This document shows, in pieces, positions 1,024-54,177 of a stretch of 64,000 bases of DNA. The translations under genes and the position numbers were made by a program. The stretch lies in assembly GCA_964016885.1 (NCBI GenBank), contig OZ024744.1:39060001-39124000 (forward strand). The letters are read 5' to 3'. The stretch's first letter is position 1; each line of letters opens with the position of its first letter. The notes under the pieces are model-generated. The model searched no databases and was not told where the DNA came from. It saw only the letters and a program-made list of their open reading frames with translations. This stretch comes from Eledone cirrhosa (lineage: Eukaryota).

Positions 1024-1368
1024 ATGTGTGTGTGTGTGTGTGTGTGTGCGTGCGTGTGCGTGCGTGTGTGTGTGCGCGCGCGCGAAATGTTGTTAAGACA
1101 ATGTTACACTTACATTATTATTTTATTGCATAATATATATTTCAGTGACATGGTTGTGCAATGTTCATAACTTTGACAGTCTTTATGTGGCATCATCAGA
1201 TGCTCATACAATTTTGAGGTGTAGTTATGCAAATATGCAGATATGCCGCTGATAATATATTACCATCTTGGTGTGATGCGAGCGAACGTATGCTTTTGGA
1301 TTGCTTAAACCGGTTTATCTTCCCGGATAAACACCCTTATTATCTGCACTATATATATATATATATAT

Positions 1369-1564
1369 GAACGAGTAGGACCCCGACGGCTGAGCTCAAG
1401 CCGTTTCGACGGCTAATTCTGGACTCAGTCCAGAATTAGCCGTCGAAACGGCTTGAGCTTAGCCGTCGGGGTCCTACTCGTTCCTATTACCCACTCTACT
1501 ACCCTAAGTATTGAGTACTTTGGTGCGTTATGGTTCACCTGGTTCCTTACCACATTTCTTCCGT

Positions 1565-1565
<1 letters not shown>
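1369..1565 (+). mobile_element. Short PLE-like 3' fragment with a 115-bp palindrome (axis 1426) containing the 3' half of a hammerhead
   Basis: 57-bp arms with one mismatch. GAAA-CGGCT-tgagctt-AGCCG-TC-ggggtcc at 1445-1474. Flanked by (TA)n; same family as 11489-11682. Confidence 0.75.
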
Positions 1566-1591
<26 letters not shown>

Positions 1592-2094: not shown

Positions 2095-2251
2095 ACAGTT
2101 ACACACACACACACACACAGTTACAAACACACATACAGCCTATCTCTCTCCCGCCACCCTCTCTCTCAATATGCAGTCTCTTTCAATTTCTTCGACTCTG
2201 CTACAAACTTCTCTCTCTGTGTTACTTTCTCCTTTCCCCTTTCTCTTTCTG

Positions 2252-2317
<66 letters not shown>

Positions 2318-3284
2318 ACACACACATTCTCTCTCACCCTCTGTAACTCATCCTCTCTTTTAGTCTCTATGTCTGTTTCACTGTCTCTCTCACTCTTTCT
2401 CCTCCTCTCAATCACTCATTGACATTAGAGACCCTAGTCACAAAACAATCAAGAACGCGCAGATCTCCCTCCCTGCCCCTCTCTCTGCTTCTCTCTCTTT
2501 TGATGTGTGTGTGTGGTTTTCGTGTCACTAAAACAACCAACCAACCAATAAACATCTCTTTTTAATATATATATATATATATATATCGTTTCTGAATTTG
2601 TTTAGCAAGATTCTTTATCTAAAAACGTGTGTTGAAACCGATATTGTTATACTTTGGGAGGGTCATGTTGCCAATAAGAAACACACGCACCAGTTGCTTT
2701 CACTTCAATTTATTATAATAAATTTATAAATTCCTAAATTTATAAATTTATTATAATAAATTGAAGTGAAAGCAACTGGTGCGTGTGTTTCTTATTGGCA
2801 ACATGACCCTCCCAAAGTATAACAATATCGGTTTCAACACACGTTTTTAGATAAAGAATCTTGCTAAACAAATTCAGAAACGATATATATATATATATAT
2901 ATATTAAAAAGTGATGTTTATTGGTTGGTTGGTTGTTTTAGTGACACGAAAACCACACACACTCATCAAAAGAGAGAGAAGCAGAGAGAGGGGGAGGGAG
3001 GGAGATCTGCGCGTTCTTGATTGTTTCGTGACCAGGGTCTCTAATGTCAATGAGTGATTGAGAGGAGGAGAAAGAGTGAGAGAGAGAGTGAAACAGACAT
3101 AGAGACTAAAAGAGAGGATGAGTTATAGAGGGTGAGAGAGAATGTGTGTGTGACAGAGAGAGAGAGAAAGGGGAAAGGAGAAAGTAACACAGAGAGAGAA
3201 GTTTGTAGCAGAGTCGAAGAAATTGAAAGAGACTGCACATTGAGATAGGGGGTGGCGGGAGAGAGAGGCTGTATGTGTATTTAT

Positions 3285-3368
<84 letters not shown>

Positions 3369-3372
3369 CTGT
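2095..3372. repeat. ~1.28-kb fold-back palindrome, axis 2733-2736
   Basis: 2095-2732 is the reverse complement of 2737-3372 apart from substitutions and microsatellite length changes. ORFs 1889(+) and 3047(-) share the peptide MQSLSISSTLLQTSLS. Confidence 0.92.
2563..2905. mobile_element. PLE 3' end (last ~165 bp of the main PLE) in fold-back form
   Basis: 2737-2882 matches 15710-15857 and is mirrored at ~2586-2732. (TA)n lies on both sides. Confidence 0.88.
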
Positions 3373-3490
3373 GTGGGACAAGACTACGCCATTGTACAGG
3401 AAAGGGGGGACGAAAGTAACTATTAGCAGAGAAAGTGAAAGGCAGACGCTGTGTGTTTGTTTCTGTGTGCATGTATGTGTGCGTCAGTGA

Positions 3491-3572
<82 letters not shown>

Positions 3573-4627
3573 CGTCCCACAAAAGTCTTGAATCGGCTTA
3601 AACTATAGATCAAAGTATCAATTGAAGGTTTAATAATATTACGTTAGCTTTTATAAAGTCTTTGATTTTACAGATAACAGAAAAAATTGATACTATTTGA
3701 AATTAATCTACGGTGTATATTAATTTAGCTTTTGTGCGATAGTGTCATATGCCAAAACACCGCTCATCTATCGGCAAGTTACAATGTCCGCTAAACGGTT
3801 GAAATCTTCAAGTGAAAGAGAAACTTACAAACAATATAGAAAGACTTGGGAATAAAGGGACAAGTTAACATTATGACATTCAGCAGAATATGAGACGGGA
3901 AACTGAAAGGTTAAGCCAAGAAAGACCATCGCAACTTTCTACAAGTGTACAAAACCTGAGACAGGAAACAAAGATTAAGGCAAGAAGAAAGACTATCGCA
4001 ACAAACAGAGGTTCAATATGAAAATCACTAAGAGGCAATGAGAGTTGCGATGCAAACTCGACTAGCTCAAAGGACACTTCAAGGTAGAATAAACTGACTA
4101 AGGGCTACGGTTTCATATGATCCATTGAAGAATTATAGAAATGATTCTAAAGTGACGATTGGTAGCATGGATATTACACTTGGCATGTGTTGCTTAGGAG
4201 GAAAGGTCAGACATCCACTGATAGAGGACACTCCAGTTTTTATCCATATACTGATTACAGACCGTACTAACGAAGCTAAACACTTCAGAAGCAATGTTAT
4301 GCGGTATATTGCTGTGTTTCAGATGACGTCCTTTGGAACTGAAAAAGATCATACTGACTATGGTTATTTCAAAGCATTTAAAATCCAAGGCCAATGCTAT
4401 CACTTAATCGACAGTTTACTCCTCCAGCCTAATGAGGAAGTTTTATGGTTGTTTTTTTTATCTCTCTCTCTCTCTCCCTCACACACACACATACACACAC
4501 ACACACGCACACACATTACGATCTCACCTCATACTGTGTAAATGAGACAACACACCAATACAGTTGTTTTCTCTTTTATCCTTTTCTCTTAACTTTTCTC
4601 TCAGGCGAAGCCGGGTACCTCAGCTAA
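2903..4627 (+). mobile_element. Helitron with a RepHel N-terminal remnant
   Basis: ORF 4125-4440 has MCCLGGKV..P, F..N+.RY..VFQMTSFG, FKIQGQCYH.I.SLL, typical of Helitron RepHel. 3' end ggcgaagccgggtacctcagCTAA (degenerate CTAG). The 5' end has TA-rich and (GGTT)n sequence. Confidence 0.8.
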
Positions 4628-11160: not shown

Positions 11161-11488
11161 GACGATTGTATGAGTTAGAGTCTAGACTAACTTATTTTAG
11201 TCGATCTGACTTATATTCCCCTAAATTGAGATTTTGACAGAACTTTATATGTTAATATGAGTTTGATATTTAATCTGTATATTTTATCCATTCATTGAGA
11301 CGTTTAAGTATTAGAAACAAATAACTTTTTAATTGATATTAACCACTCCTTCCTTGTAGAATAGAGTTAGATGTTTTTCGCTACTATTTCTAGCGTCCTT
11401 ATGAGCTTGTATTGTCCTAATATATATATAGAGAGATTTGTTCATTTAGTAGCTCAATAACGCAACGTTTATATATATATGTATATAT

Positions 11489-11682
11489 ATAGGAAAATGT
11501 TCAAGAACCCGACGGCAGAGCTCAAGCCATTTCGACGGCTATTTCAGAAATAGCCGTCGAAACGGCTTGAGCTCTGCCGTCGGGGTCTTGAACATTTTCC
11601 TATTACCCACTCTACTACCCTAAGTATTGAGTACTCTGGTGCGTTATGGTCCATCTGGTTCCTTACCACACTTCCTTCGTTA
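11489..11682 (+). mobile_element. Second copy of the 1369 family, with a 115-bp palindrome (axis 11546)
   Basis: Shared body cctattacccactctactaccctaagtattgagtact...ccttaccaca; (TA)n flanks. Confidence 0.75.
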
Positions 11683-11935
11683 TATATATATACCCCTCTA
11701 ACTAAATTTTGTCCGAACAACACCACTAGAAGAATCTACTTCCCAGCCAACCTTAGCACGCCTCATTAAGCTAACTGCTGCCAAAACATTCTCTCTTCAC
11801 AATCTCTACTAGTCTGACAGTCTTAAACCCTAAGACTCCCTCCACCTTACTCACTTCCCTCTTCCCCTTTTCTTCCTACCTCCTTCTTTATCTTTTATCT
11901 AGTGTACAAAATATTTTCATATCATTCTAATACAA

Positions 11936-12346: not shown

Positions 12347-12442
<96 letters not shown>

Positions 12443-12836
12443 TGTTATACTTTGGGAGGGTCATGTTGCCAATAAGAAACACACGCACCAGTTTCTTTCA
12501 CTTCAATTTATTATAATAAATTTATAAATTTAGGAATTTATAAATTTCCGTTTGGTTGGTTGGTTCCACAACCAGATGGTTGTTTATATATTGTCAAAGT
12601 TCTTTCGTCACACATTCTGTGACCTCTTCGGTGACTGGAGATTCTTTTCTTTGTTTTTGTGCCTCTCCTTTGTTCTGTCCTACGCCATCTTGTTTCTGTG
12701 TGTGTGTGGTGTGCTCAGTCTGCGCATGCGCCACATCCGGGTGTCTGTGTGTGTTTATATTCGTTTATTTATTTGTTTATTTACATGTTACTGGTTGGTT
12801 GTTTGTTATATGTGCGTGTGTGTTTTCAGGGAGACT

Positions 12837-15404
12837 ATGGACAGAGAAAATAACCAAGACGAACGCACAGACACACAAAATAGAGTAGATAATAACAATG
12901 AGCCAGAGGAAAGAGACAGGAGTAATAATGAGAGACATAGAAACAACCATGAGGCTGTTGGTGGAAATAGAAATAGAAACAACACAACTAACAATAACAA
13001 TAGCACCACTACACATAAAGCAGCAGCCTGGAACTCTACTTTTTATAATCCCTCCGATAAGTCGTTCGACCTGCGACGAGTCCACGCCACGACTTTACCA
13101 TTTAACAACGCACGCAATTGCTGTCGCAGGTCGATGAACAAACAGAAGCACAATTTAGTATAGCTAGATCTAAACTTAGAAATATTATAGAACAGTATAG
13201 CAAGAAGCATAATAGAATGGAGGCCCAGCAACTGGGAGAAAAATCTGCAAATGGCTTGCATAAGCTCATGCAGCGCTCGCGTAATGGAGAGATAGCATGC
13301 TTTCCAACAGACAAGTCTGGCAGAATGTCGGTTGACAGTCTGTCAAACTACATCCAGGCAATGCAACCCCACATCACTAACACAAGAGAAGTAACACCAC
13401 AAGAGCATGAGGATAGCGAAAAAGCCCTCAATGCCCATATGGTGATGTGGACAAATATAATGCAGCCCAACAAAAGGACTGCCAACAATTTCCAGGCCTG
13501 GAACAATGACGTGCCAGCGTTGTATAGGCTTCGAAAAGACCATAAAACGGGCAGTGGCCCTGTCACAAGACCACCAACACGGCCAGTCTGTGGAGCTAAC
13601 ATTGTTAGTAACTACAGACTGTCCTTCCTCTCCCTGATCATACGCCCCATCATTGAAATGTCCCCAGATGTATGTGACAGCACGGAGGACCTCCTCAGCA
13701 GAATCGGCGAGAGTAACCGATCTAGGGACCTAACAAACTGCATAATAGGTAGTATGGATGTTGTGTCCCTATATCCATCTATTGACGTGGATTTTTCTGT
13801 GGAGAAATGCGTAGAAATGATCAGTGAGAGCAATGTTGAGTTCTGTGGGATTGATACCAGTGAGGTGGGACTCCTACTTAAACTTACCTATAGTAATAAT
13901 TATCTAGACACATATGACCTTAGCAATCTGTGTCCTACAAGACCAGCAAGAGGCAGACCACCTACGATTACCTCAATGGCCAAGAAAACCCACACAGATA
14001 GATGGAACGGGTGGACCAGAGCCATACGGACACCCGAAAACCACGATGAACTAAAGAAAATGATTGCACATGTGGTGGGGGCCAGCATAAAATTAACCCT
14101 TAAGGAACATATGTTCAAATTTAATGGAAAAACATATGCCCAAGAGGAGGGAGCAGCCATTAGTGTTAGCATTGCAGGCGACATAGCTAACTTATTCATG
14201 GTATGGTGGGACATTAGACTTAAACTTAAACTTAAAGAACAATTAGAAGACCCCTTAACCCTGATAATGTACTCCCGCTACGTTGATGATATAAACATCG
14301 TAGTTAAAACACCCCACTAGAGAACAGTCAGGAATTAGAGAAAAACACAATGGAAAGAATCCAGCAAATAGCTAACTTCATCCACCAGAGTATTAGAGTT
14401 ACTATAGACTACCCAAGCAAACACCCCAACCATCGATTACCTGTACTAGACACAGAGCTCTGGTTAGATACCATTAATAACAAAAAACAAATCCTCCATT
14501 CCCATTATGCCAAACCCATGACTTCCAAATATCTGATCCACCGAAACTCAGCTGTTTCGGACCATACCAAAATCAACATACTGATTGCGGATTTGGTACG
14601 GGTGATGAGAAACGTGTCCCGCATGTATAACCCCGAAGAACTAGAGAGACACATACAACACTTCATCTGCCGTATGCAGTTCTCTCAGAGAGATAAAATC
14701 AGAGTGTATAGAGGAGCCAGAACCAAATGGGAAAAAATGGTAAATAATGACACAAATGGGACCTGCCCCTTGTATAGGAGCAAATTTTGGAATAGAATAG
14801 AAAGAACTAGGAATAAGGCTAATAGAATAAACTCACGGTATGATAGCAATAAATACCAGAGTGTAATGTTCATCGATACAACCCCTAGAGGTGAATTAGT
14901 TTACAAATTTAGAAGGGCCCTAGATAAACATAAACTCAATATTAAGATAGTAGAAAGACCAGGTACCTCCTTAAAAACACTTATTAGCAAGACATACCCT
15001 TTTCAAAGACCCCCCCCCCCTGTATAGATAAGAAATGTATAACCTGTAAATTAAGCCCCCATATTAACTGTAAAACTAGAAATGTAGTATATAGCATAAG
15101 ATGTACTGAAGGACAATGTAGAGATAAAAATATAGTGTACATAGGTGAGACAGCTCGTAGTGTAGGGGAACGGATAAATGAACACTGGCGAAACCTTCAA
15201 GATAGTAAAGAATCATCTGTACTCTACCAACATGCTAAAATAGAACATAAGGGTAAATTAGAGAACATAGAAATAAAAATAGAATCTACACACAGAAAAG
15301 ACGCAATGTTTAGACAAATCACAGAGGCAATAAACATAAAAGAATTACAACCAAAATGAAATAGAAAACATGGGTGGAACAGCAACATCACAACTTACAA
15401 TTAA
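12837..15404 (+). pseudogene. PLE polyprotein: RT, Cys-rich linker and GIY-YIG endonuclease (disrupted)
   Basis: Motifs TDKSGR, RKDHK, RPVCGA, GSMDVVSLYPSI, QEEGAAI, YSRYVDD, LPVLDTELW, linker C..KC..C...[23 protein letters not shown]. Frameshifts near 13110, 14315 and the poly-C at 15010-15020. TGA at 15357 is TTA in the second copy, which continues NRKHEW; the natural stop is TAA 15402-15404. Confidence 0.9.
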
Positions 15405-15509
15405 GGACAAAATGAAAACACACACGCACATAGAACAAACAACCAACCAGTAACATGTAAATAAACAAATAAATAAACGAATATAAACACACACAGACTC
15501 CCGGATATG

Positions 15510-15558
15510 GCGCATGCGCAGACTGAGCACACAACACACACACAGAAACAAGATGGCG
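15510..15558 (+). promoter_or_regulatory. NRF1-like and YY1-like motifs in the PLE pLTR
   Basis: GCGCATGCGCA (15510-15520) and CAAGATGGCG (15549-15558); the same pair occurs at 46338-46396. Confidence 0.45.
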
Positions 15559-15604
15559 TAGGACAGAACAAAGGAGAGGCACAAAAACAAAGAAAAGAAT
15601 CCTC

Positions 15605-15647
15605 GTCACTGAAGAGGTCACACAATGTGTGACGAAAGAACTTTGAC
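15605..15647 (+). ncRNA. Minimal type I hammerhead ribozyme in the PLE 3' pLTR
   Basis: gtca-CTGAAGA-g-GTCACAC-aat-GTGTGAC-GAAA-gaac-TT-tgac. Stem I gtca/tgac, 7-bp stem II, minimal stem III. Confidence 0.75.
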
Positions 15648-16028
15648 AATATATAAACAACCATCTGGTTGTGGAACCAACCAACCAACCGTAAATTTAT
15701 AAATTCCTAAATTTATAAATTTATTATAATAAATTGAAGTGAAAGAAACTGGTGCGTGTGTTTCTTATTGGCAACATGACCCTCCCAAAGTATAACAATA
15801 TCGGTTTCAACACACGTTTTCAGATAAAGAATCTTATTAAACAAATTCAGAAACGAAATATATATATATATATCATAAGAAAATATATATATATATATAT
15901 ATATCATAAGAAAAATATTTTTTCGTAAGGAAAAACTACTTCTTTTTGATAGCGAGGCTACACATATGTTTATTGTATATAAACGTTTAATAATGTTTAT
16001 AAATATTTTCACACACACACACATACAT

Positions 16029-32371: not shown

Positions 32372-32465
<94 letters not shown>

Positions 32466-32729
32466 AACGGAAAAAATGAAATGAAATGAAATTTCCCACT
32501 CTTAGTACGGCTGTTACTTAAATATAAGTATGTACACGTACATACATATATGTATACAGACGTACAGTAGTATGTATATATATATACATACATGCACACA
32601 TACATATATGTACGTATGGATTCACCGAACATTTATTATAATGCTCGGTGTGTTTGTAAACAAACATCCCGTATTAAGCCGTAGTGTCCACAGCCATCGT
32701 TGCTCGTTTGTTCAACACTGACAAAGGAA

Positions 32730-32770
32730 CGCTGTACTAGTTTCAAGCTTATTAGCTATCGTCAGCGACG
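32730..32770 (-). ncRNA. Minimal type I hammerhead
   Basis: Minus: cgtcg-CTGACGA-t-AGCT-aata-AGCT-t-GAAA-CTAG-TA-cagcg. Confidence 0.65.
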
Positions 32771-33184
32771 TATACCTTCTTGCCAGGTTGTTGAACGTAT
32801 ATACTTACCTTATGCATATTAACGGCTGAGTAGCCCAATTTGCATATCGAGTGGGTTAATCGGCCGGGTGCACCGAAAACGATAAACGGAAAAAATGAAA
32901 CGAAATTTCATTTCTCACTCTTAGTACGGCTGTTACTTAAATATAAGTATGTACACCTACATACATATATGTATACAGACGTACAGTAGTATGTATATAT
33001 ATATATACATACATGCACACACATATATATGTACGTATGGATTTCGTTTCATTTTTTCCGTTTATCGATTTCGGTACCCCCGGCCGATTAACTCACTCGA
33101 TATGCAAATTAGGCTGCTCAGCCATTAATATGCATAAGGAAAGTATATACTTTCAGTCGTTCAACCATCTGGCAGGAAGGTATA

Positions 33185-33225
33185 CGTTGCTGACGATAGC
33201 TAATAAGCTTGAAACTAGTACAGCG
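33185..33225 (+). ncRNA. Minimal type I hammerhead
   Basis: cgttg-CTGACGA-t-AGCT-aata-AGCT-t-GAAA-CTAG-TA-cagcg. Stem I 5 bp; palindromic ACTAGT stem III. Confidence 0.72.
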
Positions 33226-33428
33226 TTCCTTTGTCAGTGTTGAGCAAATGAGCAACGATGGTTGCTGGACACTACGGCTTAATACGGGATGTTTGTTTAC
33301 AAACACACCGAGCATCATAATAAATGTTCGGTGAATCCATACGTACAATATATGTGTGCATGTATGTATATATATATATACATACTACTGTACGTCTGTA
33401 TACATATATGTATGTACGTATACATACT

Positions 33429-33491
<63 letters not shown>

Positions 33492-35584: not shown

Positions 35585-35812
35585 CAGACCTGTCAACTAT
35601 CAGACCTGTCAACTCTCCCCGTCCGACGGGGAGATCTCTCACCCACTTTGGGGTGGGTGAGATATATCTTCTCTTGTGAAAATGGATATAGCTTTCATTA
35701 TGTAAAATCTCCCCATTTTGCCTCATTTCTCCTCGTTTTGGGGGCACTTTTTTTCATTGTACTGTCCGTTTGGGTTGTGTTTTTTTTAGGTTGGCAGGTC
35801 CGAGTACTGGTG
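35585..35812. mobile_element. ~210-bp MITE, copy 1 (hAT-like TIR)
   Basis: CAGACCTGTCAAC (duplicated in tandem) ... GTTGGCAGGTCCG; inverted relative to copy 2. Confidence 0.7.
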
Positions 35813-35879
35813 GCCGATATAATCGTAGATTATTACATTGAAAATGTAAGAAACTATTATGATTATTGTTGCTATAATC

Positions 35880-36335
35880 AGGGTGGTGGATTGGCAGAGT
35901 CGTTAGAGCCTCGAACAAATGCTTATCAGTATTTGTTCCGGCTCTTTACGTTCTGAGTTCAAATCCCGCCAAGGTCAATTTCATCCTTCCGAGATCGATA
36001 AAATAAAGTACCAATCAATTCTGGGGTCTATATAACAGACCTGCCAACCTTTAAACATCCAAATGGGGAGTACCATGAAAAAAAGTGCCCCAAATCGGGC
36101 AGAAATGAGGCAAAATGGGGAGATTTTTCATAATGAAAGCTATAGCCATTTTCACAAGAGAAGACATCTCTTACCCACCTCAAAGTTGGTGGGAGGTCTA
36201 CCCGTCGGATGGCGAGAGTTGATAGGTCTGATATAATTAATTTGCACTCACACACACACACACACACACCACCACCACCACCACCACCACCATCATCACC
36301 TCCAAATTGCTGGTCTTGTGCCAAAATTAGAAAAT
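35880..36335 (+). mobile_element. tRNA-derived SINE split by a MITE
   Basis: Head 35880-36030; tail ...aaattgctggtcttgtgccaaaattagaaa at 36305-36335. Confidence 0.8.
36036..36230. mobile_element. 195-bp MITE, copy 2, nested in a SINE
   Basis: TIRs CAGACCTGCCAAC / GTTGATAGGTCTG with flanking direct repeat ATATAA. Confidence 0.75.
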
Positions 36336-40807: not shown

Positions 40808-41515
40808 GTGTGTATACATGTGTGGGCGTGTGGGTAGGTGTGTGTATATATGTGTGTGTATGTGTGTATGTATGTATATGCATGTATATATATCTGTGCG
40901 TGTATATGTATGTATATGTACGAATGTGTATGTGTGTGCCTCTCTGTGTGCATGTATGCGTATACTTGTGTGACTATTTATGTGTGTATGCATGGATATG
41001 TGTGTATGCTTCTGGGCGTACATGTGTGAACGTAATCACACAAGCTACTCTGTATGTATCTGTCAGTATCTCTGTGGGGGGGGGGGGGGGGTTGACAAAC
41101 AGCAGTAATTTTGCCGACGGGGCAGTGGGAGAGTGACAGCTCAGGCCCTGACGGTCAGCGGGCTGCTACAAGTGGTCTGAATAATGATGACGTCACTAAC
41201 CAGTGACTAACCCAAGGACGCGCAAAGAGGATGAAGGTGGACGATAAAGGCTGTAGGGCCAGAAAACCCCACAAAGAGGATATGATCCGAAATCAATAGA
41301 CGTGTCCGAGGAACCTGCGAGTCCAGAGTCAGGTCGATCCACACACAGATCACACCTCGAGCTGTTCGCCAGGGAACCAATTGTAACACACAATAAATTG
41401 AATTCCGTGGCATCACTGACTTTTCGTTTTCCATTCTATAATACTATAATACACTGCACCGTAGGAGCATAGAGTGCTCAACCGGCATACCGCCTATGGA
41501 AGCATCTTAGCTACC

Positions 41516-41587
41516 TTTTTAAATCTTGGACTATATATATATATATATACACACCCACACATATATATATATATATGTCTGTGTGTG

Positions 41588-41628
<41 letters not shown>

Positions 41629-41632
41629 ATAT

Positions 41633-41712
<80 letters not shown>

Positions 41713-41771
41713 TTATATATTTATATGTGTGTGTGTGTGTGTATATATATATATAATCCAAGATTTAAAAA
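41516..41771. repeat. Mirror-organised microsatellite block bounded by 15-bp inverted ends
   Basis: tttttaaatcttgga ... tccaagatttaaaaa enclosing roughly symmetric (TA)n/(CA)n/(TG)n runs. Confidence 0.6.
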
Positions 41772-42679
41772 GACACACAATAATTACATTAGTCTTAATA
41801 GTTTTGCGTTTGTCGGAAAAGGAAAAAGAATGTATCAACATATCGGACGTTAGTCCTTCCTCGGGAAAGAGAAAAGTTAGGTGAGAGACGAGGTTAGAAA
41901 GTTGAAAAAAATCGTCGTTACCTGATCGACTGCTCGTGGAGAGAAACAACGAGTAGCAAAAAGCAAGTTGATAGTTTTTTTTCCCTTTACGAGATATACA
42001 TTATGCATTAGTCACTTTTTTGTTTTTGACCAACAACATGTATGTGCGTTTGTGTGCACGCGTGGTTATGAGTGATCGTCTGTTTTAATTTTTATTTCAG
42101 TATCTTTTATTACATAAGGTAAGGAGTGAATTTGTAGTTTCGCTAGAACGTCTGATAGAATGCTTTGCGTTATTCATTCTAGCTTGCTGTGGCCTGAATT
42201 CAAATCCTGTCGAGGTCAACTTTTACCCTTTCGAGACCGATAAATAATGTACCAGCCAAATAACGTGACCAATCTTCTTATATAACTCTCTCTTATCTTT
42301 CTCTCTTTTTCTCTGGAATAAATTGACTGTGTTTGCTCCTTGAGAGTTATAGGCTCCGCCAAACTTAAATGTTCAAGGCACGCTATGGCACGAAATCTTT
42401 ATTACTAGCTTGTTCAAGGATGTGTGATAATGATTGCTATTCCAATAATATCCGGCATCTAACTTGTGCTAAATCACCCATTTACTGGCAGTTTCTATTG
42501 TTTTTTTTATTTATTTACATTTTTATTTTGTTTTATTTGATTTTATCTTATTTTATTTTATTTTATTTTATTGCTGACGAGAATAAGATAACTAACTATG
42601 GAGAAAAAAAAGAACACAAATGGTTCTTAACTCTTGATAGAATTGTAGAAGTGCCGAGAGATAGTGAAAGAAGAAGAAT

Positions 42680-43698: not shown

Positions 43699-43809
43699 GC
43701 GTGTGTGTGTGTAGGGAGTGTAACGTGCTTTTACTGTAGGTTCACCCAAGTGAGCACTCGATGCGTAGTTTCCCGCCTGTAACGAAGTGTAGAACTAAAC
43801 AAAGTGTAA

Positions 43810-43939
43810 ATATAATAGTAAAAGGATGAATTGTTATGCCTTCATTACGTTTATTGGGTAGTGACGCACGTTTCGAAACGTGCGTCACTACTCAATAAAT
43901 GTAATGAAGGCATAACAATTCGTCCTTTTACTATTATAT
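43810..43939. repeat. 130-bp loopless palindrome centred on TTTC|GAAA of a hammerhead 3' half
   Basis: Arms ~65 bp with 3 mismatches; GAAA-C-gtgc-G-TC-actac; right arm ends in (TA)n. Confidence 0.8.
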
Positions 43940-44003
43940 ATATATAAAGAGAGAGAGGGAAGAGAGAGAGGGAGAGAGAGAAAGAGAGATAGAGAGAGAG
44001 ATT

Positions 44004-45297: not shown

Positions 45298-45500
45298 TAT
45301 ATATATATAAGTGGAGGCTTAGTAAAATCGAATCTTTGGCTGTGGGCAAGCAAATTCGACCTACAATATGAATGAGTTAGCAAAGGTAGACTCGATAAGG
45401 TAATAACATACGTTTAAATAGCTTGACAAATTGAACATTGTGGTAGGCAAAATCTAACACAAAATATACCAATAGTAATAATAATATAGTATATATATAT

Positions 45501-45815
45501 ATACTATAATTGAATATAAAAGAGAGATAAACACAGATATATACATATATGTGTTCAAATCGTAAGGGACCAGATTCGCTAGGGTGAAAAAGATACTATG
45601 AACAATAGGGTTTCACCAAAAGCTGTCTGTGTGTCTGGTTGTTACCCCCAATATCGGTTTGTATTTCTTTTCTTGATTTATTCTTTTAAATTGAGTCTTG
45701 CAAACCCTATTGTCCATAGTTAATATTTTTTTCACCCTAGCGAATCTGGTCCCTGACGATTTGAACACATATATGTATATATCTGTGTTTATCTTTCTTT
45801 TATATTCAATTATAC
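45501..45815. repeat. Inverted repeat (45501-45612 vs 45703-45815)
   Basis: gtgttcaaatcgtaagggaccagattcgctagggtgaaaa / ttttcaccctagcgaatctggtccctgacgatttgaacac. Confidence 0.8.
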
Positions 45816-45989
45816 TATACGGCTCGGAAAAATCTCTTTCCTTGAGCTATTTAATTGTAAGAGACTATTTTGAGTTTCTAACTCAATATATACCTTTGAT
45901 ATATACAGTATATATATATATAGTGAAAAATGGAACGGGAACAAAACAGAGAGGCAGTACAAACAAAGGTTTATTAGTTTCACGCTCTT

Positions 45990-46035
<46 letters not shown>

Positions 46036-46041
<6 letters not shown>

Positions 46042-46717
46042 ATACTTGGGGAGGATCATATTGTTGTAATAATATTGCCAGAATTAATAACAGAACACAC
46101 TCACTGTTTGGTTGGTTTTCGCTTCTGTATCTTTTATATCAGTTAATTTATTCGGTCCTCAATGTTTACCATTGACTGACCAACGGTAAAAAATACAGAT
46201 ATAATATAGACACAAACACATATATATAGTCTACCAAACACATATAAACACACACTAGTAAACTAAGATAGAATACAGTAACCAAAACACAGTCACCCAA
46301 ACACGAACACACATCAAACACTATACACACACGCAAACGCATGCGCAGAGAAGACAAAAATAAATAAATAAATAAACAAATTAAATAAAGATGGCGTAGA
46401 CATACAATACAACAGGACGAAACATACTAGCACCACTGACGATGTTGCAGATGTGCAACGAAAGAACTTTGTTATACTATATATATGTGTTTGTGTCTAT
46501 ATTATATCTGTATTTTTTACCGTTGGTCAATCAATGGTAACATTGAGGACCGAATAAAAAAATTAAATTAACTGATATAAAAGACACAGAAGCAAAAACC
46601 AACCAAACAGTGAGTGTGTTCTGTTATTAATTCTGGCAATATTATTACAACAATATGACCCTCCCCAAGTATAACAATATTTGTTTCGATCACGATTTCA
46701 TATCAAAAACCTCGCAA

Positions 46718-50183: not shown

Positions 50184-50700
50184 CTAGCAGAAAAACCACC
50201 CTTCGGATGGTTTTCTGCTAGCATGTGTAGTGTGTATATTGATATTATACACACATATATATGCATGTAAATAAAATCGTAATTGACAATATACACAGAA
50301 ATTGAACGAAGACTGCGTTACACTGTCTTCTGTAACCAGTAAAGTAATCCATGATACATTTTAAAAAAAGAGGATATTATATATAAACTGTATTAGGAGA
50401 AAATTAGCGACGGAAATATATGCGATTATAAGTGTTATAATATAACGGCCGCTAACCGGAAGTGTTGACATTTGAGAATTTTAAAGAAGTGAATCTTTAA
50501 ATAAGCTATAAAATATATTTAATCAACAGCCACGAAATTTAGTAGATAAATTATGTAATATTCATTCATTATTTATTCAAAGTAATATATCCTTACAGGC
50601 CAACCATTCGAATTTATTAGCTCAACAATTTGGAGCTCGTTAAGTATACAAGGATCAGAATTAAGAGTATTCCGCAGTTCACAGTAATAATAATATTAGC
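50184..50700 (-). mobile_element. Helitron-like element, copy A
   Basis: Ends in CTAG|t on the minus strand at 50184. Reverse complement of 52980-53160 plus 53980-54177. Confidence 0.6.
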
Positions 50701-50787
50701 TCGAAGAAGCTAATATTCTTCTATTCTTCTTCGAGCTAATATTATTATTATTACTGTGAACTGCGGAATATTCTTAATTCCGATCCT
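50651..50787. repeat. ~135-bp fold-back hairpin next to (TA)n
   Basis: aggatcagaattaagagtattccgcagttcacagtaat...agctcgaagaag / cttcttcgagct...attactgtgaactgcggaatattcttaattccgatcct. Confidence 0.8.
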
Positions 50788-50939
50788 CATATATATATAT
50801 ATATATATATAAGTATGTATACGTACATACATATATGTATACAGACGTATATGTATACATACGTAGTATGTATATATATATATACATACATGCACACATT
50901 TATCCGTTCTCCTATACTACGAGCTGTCTCACCTATGTA

Positions 50940-52290: not shown

Positions 52291-52716
<426 letters not shown>

Positions 52717-52899: not shown

Positions 52900-54177
52900 C
52901 ATCTAAACTATAATAAAAGTAGGAGCGCGGAACTGCGTACTGTTTACAAATTTTTTATCCCATTAGTAAAATAAGTTGGATTACTTTGAATAAATAATGA
53001 ATGAATGTTACATAATTTATCTACTAAATTTCGTGGCTATTGATTAAATATATTTTGTTTATTTAAAGATTCACTTCTTTAAAATTTCTGAAATGTTAAC
53101 ACTTCCGGTTGGCGACCGTTTAAATAAACATACTAATTTTCTCCTAATGCAGTTTATATATAACTAGCAGCTGAGCCCGGTTGCACCCGGGGCCACTTTT
53201 TATTAAGTTAATAATTTGAAAAATATTATAGAAAGTTTATTATAAAGAAGCAGTTTCACGAAAAAAAATAGAAATATGCACTTGGGGCTGGACGGCGTAC
53301 AATGAGAAGTGGAGCGACGTGAAAAGCGTTGTTTATTAACAGCGAAATAGCAATGTCGATGATATGCAATTTGAAAAATACTACTTACTGTTAGTGGTGG
53401 TTAACATGTATTAGAATTAAAATAAAAACACGCGTCCCTTTTTCTTTAAGGGTTTTATTTCTTTTGATGGAAAACAGTGACCGTACTACAGAATCGATTT
53501 CATAAAACGGTACTGTATGATCGTTAAATGTAGAAGGATGATAGTTTATTAACAGCGAAATAGCAATGTCGATGATATGCAAGTTTTAAAATGCATATTA
53601 TGAAGGTTTGTATGATAGTTTACACTTTTTCCTGAAACTGCTTCTTTATAATAAACTTTCAATAATATTTTTCAAATTATTGGTACTGTATGTTAACAGC
53701 GAAAGAACGTTGATGAGTTTAAAAATTTGTATGAAATTGTAAATAAGACAAAAGTATTAGAACAGGGGGAAATAACTCACCGAACGCGATAGTTTTGGGG
53801 CCCCCGGGACCACATTTTTAGTGGATTTGAAGTTAGAGATTTGAAACCTCGTCTATTTGCTTCCTTGGCACTTTTTACATAGGTGTGTAAATGTTCATGT
53901 CCGTCCGACCACGTCTACTACCATTTAACCGTGCACATCTGAATTTCAACCACCACCCATTTCATAAATATATATTAGATATCGTCTTTTTTTTTAATGT
54001 ATCATGGATTACGTTACTGTGTAACACAGTCTTCGTTCAATTTCTGTGTATTGTATATTGTCAATTATGATTTTATTTGATGTATCATATCTACATGTAT
54101 ATATACCTGCGTATAATATCAATATATACACTACACATGCTAGCAGAAAACCACCCGAAGGTTGGTTTTTCTGCTAG
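52900..54177 (+). mobile_element. Helitron-like element, copy B, with a nested Helitron
   Basis: Starts near atctaaactataataaaagt, ends ...ttttctgCTAG|t, and is split by 53164-53979. Confidence 0.6.
53164..53979 (-). mobile_element. Nested non-autonomous Helitron
   Basis: Minus 5' a|TCTAATATATATTTATG; 3' hairpin ccgggtgcaaccggg then cagctgCTAG|t. It cleanly interrupts homology to 50184-50590. Confidence 0.75.

Follow-up and report, generated by a model that had tools for sequence, protein, structure and literature searches.

How does host DNA come to be copied in inverted orientation around the hairpin of a retrotransposon? The question is raised by a long palindrome in the window (the whole 64,000-nucleotide stretch of DNA that was analysed), whose axis lies in a Penelope-like element (PLE) and whose two arms carry the same part of a neighbouring Helitron. 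The first-pass annotation of this DNA inferred snap-back synthesis that ran past the priming site of the PLE.

Geometry and content of the palindrome

Aligned with the reverse-complemented left arm, the right arm confirmed a palindrome spanning 1278 bp (2095-3372). Symmetry ran from the loop CCTA (2733-2736) outward to 2096 and 3371, with one extra matching base at 2095/3372, giving arms at 2095-2732 and 2737-3372. A BLAST self-match covered 2101-3306 (E=0.0) and reversed-pattern controls gave 0 matches, excluding chance for the palindrome and its junction. The 13-bp axis stem and the loop were those of a hairpin that a long PLE in the same window carries in its 3' pLTR (15693-15722), so that the first-pass annotation was right in calling the axis native to the element. 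Its description of the mirror arm (PLE 3' end, (TA)n and the first 470 bp or so of the Helitron, joined to another (TA)n at 2095) was likewise seen in the arm alignment: each arm comprised 146-147 nt of PLE 3' end, a TA run of 22 nt and 467-469 nt of the Helitron 5' region. CCTA lay in the sense of the arm joined to the original Helitron, and the return junction at the outer TA run had microhomology of 1 nt only. The features were as follows:

2072-2095, no strand: (TA)12 run at which the duplicated arm has its outer junction; another high-copy repeat (about 1592-2071) also has its 3' boundary here (sequence, read depth)
2096-2564, minus strand: Helitron 5' region (2905-3371) copied in inverted orientation, 469 nt, with 12 substitutions and microsatellite indels with respect to the right arm (alignment)
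2565-2586, no strand: TA run, 22 nt, equal in length to the mirror run (alignment)
2587-2732, minus strand: PLE pLTR 3' end with its 55-nt tail, copied in inverted orientation; no difference from the right arm, with which it shares C>T at 2621/2848 (alignment)
2720-2749, plus strand: native pLTR hairpin, 13-bp AT stem, loop CCTA at 2733-2736, palindrome axis (match to 15693-15722)
2737-2882, plus strand: 3' end of the PLE pLTR plus tail, the short end lying at about 2828 and the tailed end at 2882 (alignment)
2883-2904, no strand: TA run, 22 nt, PLE target microsatellite (alignment)
2905-4626, plus strand: old non-autonomous Helitron-family element; duplicated part 2905-3371, Rep/helicase N-terminal fragment 4098-4436 (relatives, homology)
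12439-15856, plus strand: reference PLE of the same family as the palindrome core, ORF broken (sequence, Pfam, homologs)

The reference PLE and the duplicated Helitron

Judged from its sequence, the palindrome core is a PLE of the C-terminal endonuclease type (RT followed by GIY-YIG, with pLTRs and a tail at one end). The reference PLE consisted of a short pLTR (12439-12828) inverted relative to 15413-15801, RT pieces (13106-15027), a GIY-YIG region (14988-15359) and a 3' pLTR with the hairpin and a 55-nt tail running to its end (15802-15856). This element was intact in its pLTRs but not in its ORF, which was split into three pieces. The C-terminal endonuclease matched GIY-YIG (PF01541, E=6.4e-5, above cut-off); the RT piece was without match in the Pfam scan, its homologs carried PF00078 and PF01541, and the best named RT match was an Octopus vulgaris protein (68%), which makes the host octopus-like. 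Core words at 15609-15637 of the pLTR, which we take to be hammerhead-like, had a stem between them (fold z=-1.3); the Rfam scan gave no hammerhead match and no relevant family. A C-x4-C-x2-C motif was present upstream of GIY-YIG, as described for Neptune, Nematis and Naiad in the available text of PMC8557442.

That the flank is a Helitron is indicated by the fragment at 4098-4436, which was 38% identical over 93% to P0054 (E=1e-12), a protein with Helitron_like_N and PIF1 domains (PF14214, PF05970); direct Pfam scans of the Helitron pieces gave no match. Relatives of this Helitron had common ends at about 2901-2905 and 4626, the 3' end showed a GC-rich subterminal stretch followed by CTAA (about 4605-4627), and no TC terminus was seen at the 5' end. 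On the other side of the palindrome, the high-copy repeat at 1592-2071 lay between TA runs and is probably another PLE pLTR; its positions of about 1830-1880 contained core words which are presumably hammerhead-like (fold z=-1.5).

A local inverted copy

Matches to 2905-3075 at 97-100% were found in the two arms of the palindrome only, the other 40 matches (40 of 265 candidates scored) being at 75-90% with partial query cover. The duplication is therefore local, as the first-pass annotation had proposed, and 3' transduction is disfavoured. In that alternative, which the annotation had also named, the entire palindrome would have moved as a dispersed unit; the right arm ran on into the remainder of the Helitron and there was no third near-identical copy of the flank among the scored candidates, making this explanation hardly credible.

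The other doubt raised at the outset was an assembly artefact, in the form of a chimeric fold-back read or of a head-to-head join of two haplotypes. Short-read contigs of a single sample carried left-arm alleles at 3027, 3033 and 3086 in X1 and right-arm alleles in X2 (depth about 7), which counts against a fold-back read. Such a read copies one molecule and would not give the derived changes seen on both arms (next sections), and an artefact would also need a new junction at 2095. The doubt retains some ground in that no short-read contig examined crossed the whole palindrome, nor was any observed to bridge the outer junction, the short-read sample may be the assembled one, and the 3% arm divergence could be heterozygosity. 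Run X6 gave no cover over the unique flank, and cover in the RAD-seq run X20 was limited to 2895-2936 (about the first 40 bases of the flank). Weighing both sides, an artefact is very improbable.

Sister junctions at the same hairpin

The hairpin with 10 downstream nt had 3738 exact occurrences. The fold-back junction was present at 32 exact places and at 67 distinct places with at most 2 mismatches (69 rows, since two places were counted once per strand), all of which were examined. This search for other insertions folded at the hairpin, suggested by the first-pass annotation, was productive: 59 of the 67 junctions joined a short arm and a tailed arm, ending at about 92 and 147, each with its own TA run and with unrelated flanks; 6 had other arrangements; and 2, the window palindrome (about 469 nt) and the locus L072 (72 nt), were tailed on both arms with mirrored flank. 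Arm-to-arm divergence was 4.7% (89 of 1894 sites, 29 loci). A core search with the 298-nt symmetric sequence gave 6 more short/tailed copies and no further copy tailed on both arms (40 of 272 candidates scored).

The loop read CCTA in the sense of the short arm at 29 of the 59 short/tailed junctions and in that of the tailed arm at 24, the other 6 having a variant loop. A cDNA begun at the tailed end and then snapping back would yield one polarity only, so pure snap-back from the tailed end cannot account for this mixture. Both polarities fit two cDNAs joined via the self-complementary hairpin, or a deletion between the hairpins of inverted pLTRs. Fourteen inverted PLEs (L225-L238, hand-picked minus/plus neighbours from the first 100 listed matches of the hairpin with 10 nt) were mostly composed of two independently 5'-truncated arms, with an overlap of 1-7 nt or a short insert at the joint; in 3 of them (L228, L229 and L234) both arms ended at one point, within 1 nt, which allows some self-priming. 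Junction polarity thus bears on how PLE inverted structures form: the mixed polarity of 53 short/tailed junctions, together with the independently truncated arms, would favour two-cDNA joining or inverted-pLTR deletion over self-priming alone.

A second palindrome family with one tail in (TA)n was represented in the window (1350-1576 and 11474-11692) and at L103-L124, with 2342 first-look candidates; its flank was extended in 0 of 22 loci.

Several other loci had features of their own. L225 had a tail at both ends and unrelated flanks. Two of the 67 junctions (L045 and L046, G000:C4:28832066-28838647) were 3.5 kb apart with flanks alike, a tandem duplication. L172 (4539-6326) contained a 310-bp tandem array with an internal inversion, its arms of about 700 nt being 99.7% identical, and was rejected as a flank extension, the unit of this inverted array being also found beside L035. 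L086 was not counted either, its 77-nt flank-to-flank match not being anchored at the arms.

A datable flank extension

The second flank-extending palindrome at the pLTR hairpin (L072:1285-1881; G000:C3:192872483-192875792) had the order: flank, TA, tailed arm, loop, copy of the tailed arm, TA, 72 nt of inverted flank, repeat of the centre, original short arm and TA. The copy opened with short-arm alleles at arm positions 12 and 24 and continued with long-arm alleles; it carried the 1-nt deletion of the long arm, missing from the surviving downstream short arm, and the long-arm changes of the tail (one substitution and a 2-nt deletion). Since the copy holds the long arm's own mutations, the original arms had already diverged, and the copy was made after insertion. 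The start point was inside the palindrome and the return point had a 4-nt AATT microhomology. L072 is thus a post-insertion template switch of the four-point kind, point 4 preceding point 1.

Divergence of the arms and age of the centre

The arms of the window palindrome had been described as diverged. This was true of the outer part, in which about 395 aligned nt showed 12 substitutions, a 60-nt indel, a 2-nt indel and a difference in (GT)n length, but not of the inner 175 nt, which had 0 differences, a split that had been overlooked. The first mismatch was at 2912, placing the boundary of identity at most 7 nt from the TA/Helitron edge. Fisher's test of 0/175 against 12/395 gave p=0.022, and p=0.043 for the PLE part alone, values that rest on 12 sites and on a boundary picked post hoc from the data.

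Polarised against Helitron relatives (28 loci, 2-21 informative rows per site), 5 of the 12 outer differences were derived in the right arm, 6 in the left arm and 1 was ambiguous. Derived changes in both arms indicate ageing since the duplication; error-prone copying of one arm is ruled out. The TA runs were equal in the window palindrome and unequal at L072 (20 vs. 24), and equal runs suggest recent copying. A single event, at insertion or later, predicts even divergence, and the contrast between centre and periphery therefore suggests that the centre was likely re-equalised late, as in quasi-palindrome correction. The early order of PLE and duplication would be masked by this late re-equalisation.

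Two further observations concern the age of the PLE. Over 147 nt, its arms in the window departed from the family majority by 1 change. The C>T common to both arms occurred at 39 exact places, the two arms included, and elsewhere on several upstream backgrounds (in loci chosen for likeness to the window); from these sequences it looks recurrent and post-insertion, and it was dropped as a subfamily marker for dating the PLE.

Origin of the window palindrome

The preferred reading, to which we assign a probability of roughly 0.48, is that the window palindrome is a local inverted duplication made by DNA-level fold-back template switching of the host polymerase after PLE insertion. The PLE would have entered (TA)n at the Helitron 5' end as a short-arm/tailed-arm palindrome, the form observed as a class at the sister loci. 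During replication or repair the nascent strand would then have paired with itself in the palindrome, as at L072, with backward synthesis over the tailed arm, the TA run and some 469 nt of Helitron, and have rejoined the left TA run so that the copy took the place of the short arm. The arms would subsequently have drifted about 3% apart until another switch, starting at the centre, made the inner 175 nt identical again. The seed for post-insertion switching exists, since 59 of 67 junctions were short/tailed palindromes with unrelated flanks, and both the L072 precedent and the extension in 2 of 67 fold-back junctions speak for it. Several observations weigh on the other side: there was no short-arm remnant in the window, L072 is a lone precedent whose tract, at 72 nt, was much shorter, the microhomology of the return junction was 1 nt only, the closeness of the PLE arms to the family majority is compatible with a younger PLE, and the identity boundary at the TA/Helitron edge is better predicted if the duplication came first.

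In this second order of events, an old fold-back in the (TA)n that separates the left-hand repeat from the Helitron would have produced a TA-centred 469-nt inverted duplication. A PLE would later have inserted in the central TA, and one hairpin switch, returning via arm homology, would have collapsed the centre and made it perfect. The rise in divergence from 0% to 3% would then coincide with the element/TA boundary (first mismatch at 2912), the nearness of the PLE arm to the family majority would be expected, and no deletion would be required, as the points of leaving and return can share one TA run; moreover, L179 (3786-3993) provides a TA-centred fold-back with 104-nt arms at 100%, ending at a TA run. 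The cost is a same-family PLE in the central TA run and a collapse falling exactly at the hairpin; TA-centred cases numbered 1 in 864 kb, with short arms, and no example of the complete route was found. Rough rates (6 tailed ends vs. 1115 TA runs in 800 kb) failed to separate the two orders. Duplication before the PLE is possible but doubtful. Taken jointly, the two orders make it probable that the palindrome arose at the DNA level, later than or independently of integration.

The route favoured by the first-pass annotation, snap-back in target-primed reverse transcription, would have the cDNA fold at the hairpin, run past the nick about 469 nt into the host and join the left TA run. Loop polarity in the window is the one required, though a match is expected by chance in 50% of cases; self-priming has been proposed for PLEs (PMC3846280, available part), insertion-coupled inverted duplications are known for L1 (PMC10191854; 10.1101/2024.12.14.628481, as far as the accessible texts go), and the 3 of 14 inverted elements with coincident arm ends leave room for it. 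However, flank was copied in 0 of the 59 short/tailed junctions, whose loop polarity was mixed, the second palindrome family was never extended among its 22 loci, and the only datable extension, at L072, was post-insertion. A later conversion would still be needed for the perfect centre, divergence being unequal between inner and outer arms. Snap-back is thus not supported as the likeliest route and is unlikely. Its broader form, that PLE cDNA snap-back at integration copies hundreds of host bases and that PLEs make flank hairpins feeding octopod ADAR editing, is improbable.

Other fold-backs and the supply of hairpins

Outside the window, 70 inverted-repeat pairs were found in 800 kb (about 88 per Mb; arms of at least 50 nt, spacer of at most 400 nt, nested matches not fully merged). 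The sample comprised 600 kb at arbitrary positions and 200 kb beside the window, and pairs were classed by signature, not by family: TA-plus-tail in 23, TA on one side in 14, TA on both sides in 4 and none of these in 29. With 23 TA-plus-tail pairs among the 70, the supply of hairpins is independent of flank capture. Exceptionally high dsRNA potential in octopus and heavy Penelope editing in lizard are described in the available part of PMC5625713, and ordinary PLE-type insertions are, on sequence grounds, a candidate source of the octopus dsRNA potential. The window palindrome would form dsRNA only if transcribed, and no function is implied.

Nine more inverted repeats were present in the window (32463-33436, 35598-36233, 41515-41772, 43807-43942, 45500-45819, 46033-46680, 50645-50793, 52400-52716 and 53210-53681), several with the TA-plus-tail layout. 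Fold-back duplications without the pLTR hairpin were also present in the 864-kb sample: one centred on (TA)n and ending at TA runs (L179:3760-4019, arms of 104 nt at 100%), and two whose axis had neither TA nor the pLTR hairpin (L202:9252-9616 and L177:2686-2896, arms of 182 and 105 nt respectively). At L176 (6378-7095), a 182-nt inverted duplication of repeat and host DNA, joined at TA runs, lay beside a palindrome of the second family.

Comparison with known systems

A literature search, thin on subscription journals, found no PLE-hairpin-centred duplication of host flank, and the accessible portions of PMC13282606 and 10.64898/2026.07.22.740005 held nothing on this subject. As a long near-perfect hairpin, the window palindrome is similar, if transcribed, to the ADAR substrates formed by palindromic Harbinger repeats in frog (PMC5625713, available part).

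PLE insertions are described, in the accessible sections of PMC3846280 and PMC8557442, as head-to-head, with a truncated copy in inverted orientation, palindromes at the junction and one tailed end, and the PLE tail lies between two RT start sites (PMC11167929, accessible section). The 59 of 67 sister loci and the core of the window palindrome were alike in this respect, with the junction in the pLTR hairpin and (TA)n targets. The window palindrome differed in that both arms were tailed and symmetry extended 469 nt into the host, an arrangement absent from the descriptions in the available parts of PMC3846280 and PMC8557442.

L1 foldback inverted duplications at the target measured 52-220 bp and accounted for 0.3% and 0.1% of insertions according to the available text of PMC10191854, that is, by these percentages, 4 of about 1,200 somatic insertions; inverted duplications coupled to L1 insertion were also obtained in experimental clones (10.1101/2024.12.14.628481, available part). 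In both systems target DNA is duplicated in inverted orientation beside a retrotransposon. The two differ in that L1 duplications fold within genomic DNA, on the 5'/reciprocal side, and are coupled to insertion, whereas the fold in the window lies inside the element, the flank copied is the 3' one and a later event is indicated by the evidence.

A further resemblance is to short-range template switching, in which adjacent DNA is copied inverted according to the four-point model and quasi-palindrome correction (PMC7954356 and PMC8604942, as far as available). The window insert was a reverse-complement copy of adjacent DNA and, among the scored candidates, unique to the locus. At L072 the likeness extends to the return at microhomology and the direct repeat when point 4 precedes point 1, and in the window palindrome to the homogenised inner arms; the differences from the published cases, as presented in the accessible texts, are that the seed was a palindrome made by a retrotransposon and that the window tract reached about 640 nt. 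The locus illustrates how host DNA can be duplicated in inverted orientation at a transposon-made palindrome that seeds or hosts the event (2 of 67 junctions), by a known mutational process, and is likely a rare instance of a known rearrangement rather than a new insertion mode.
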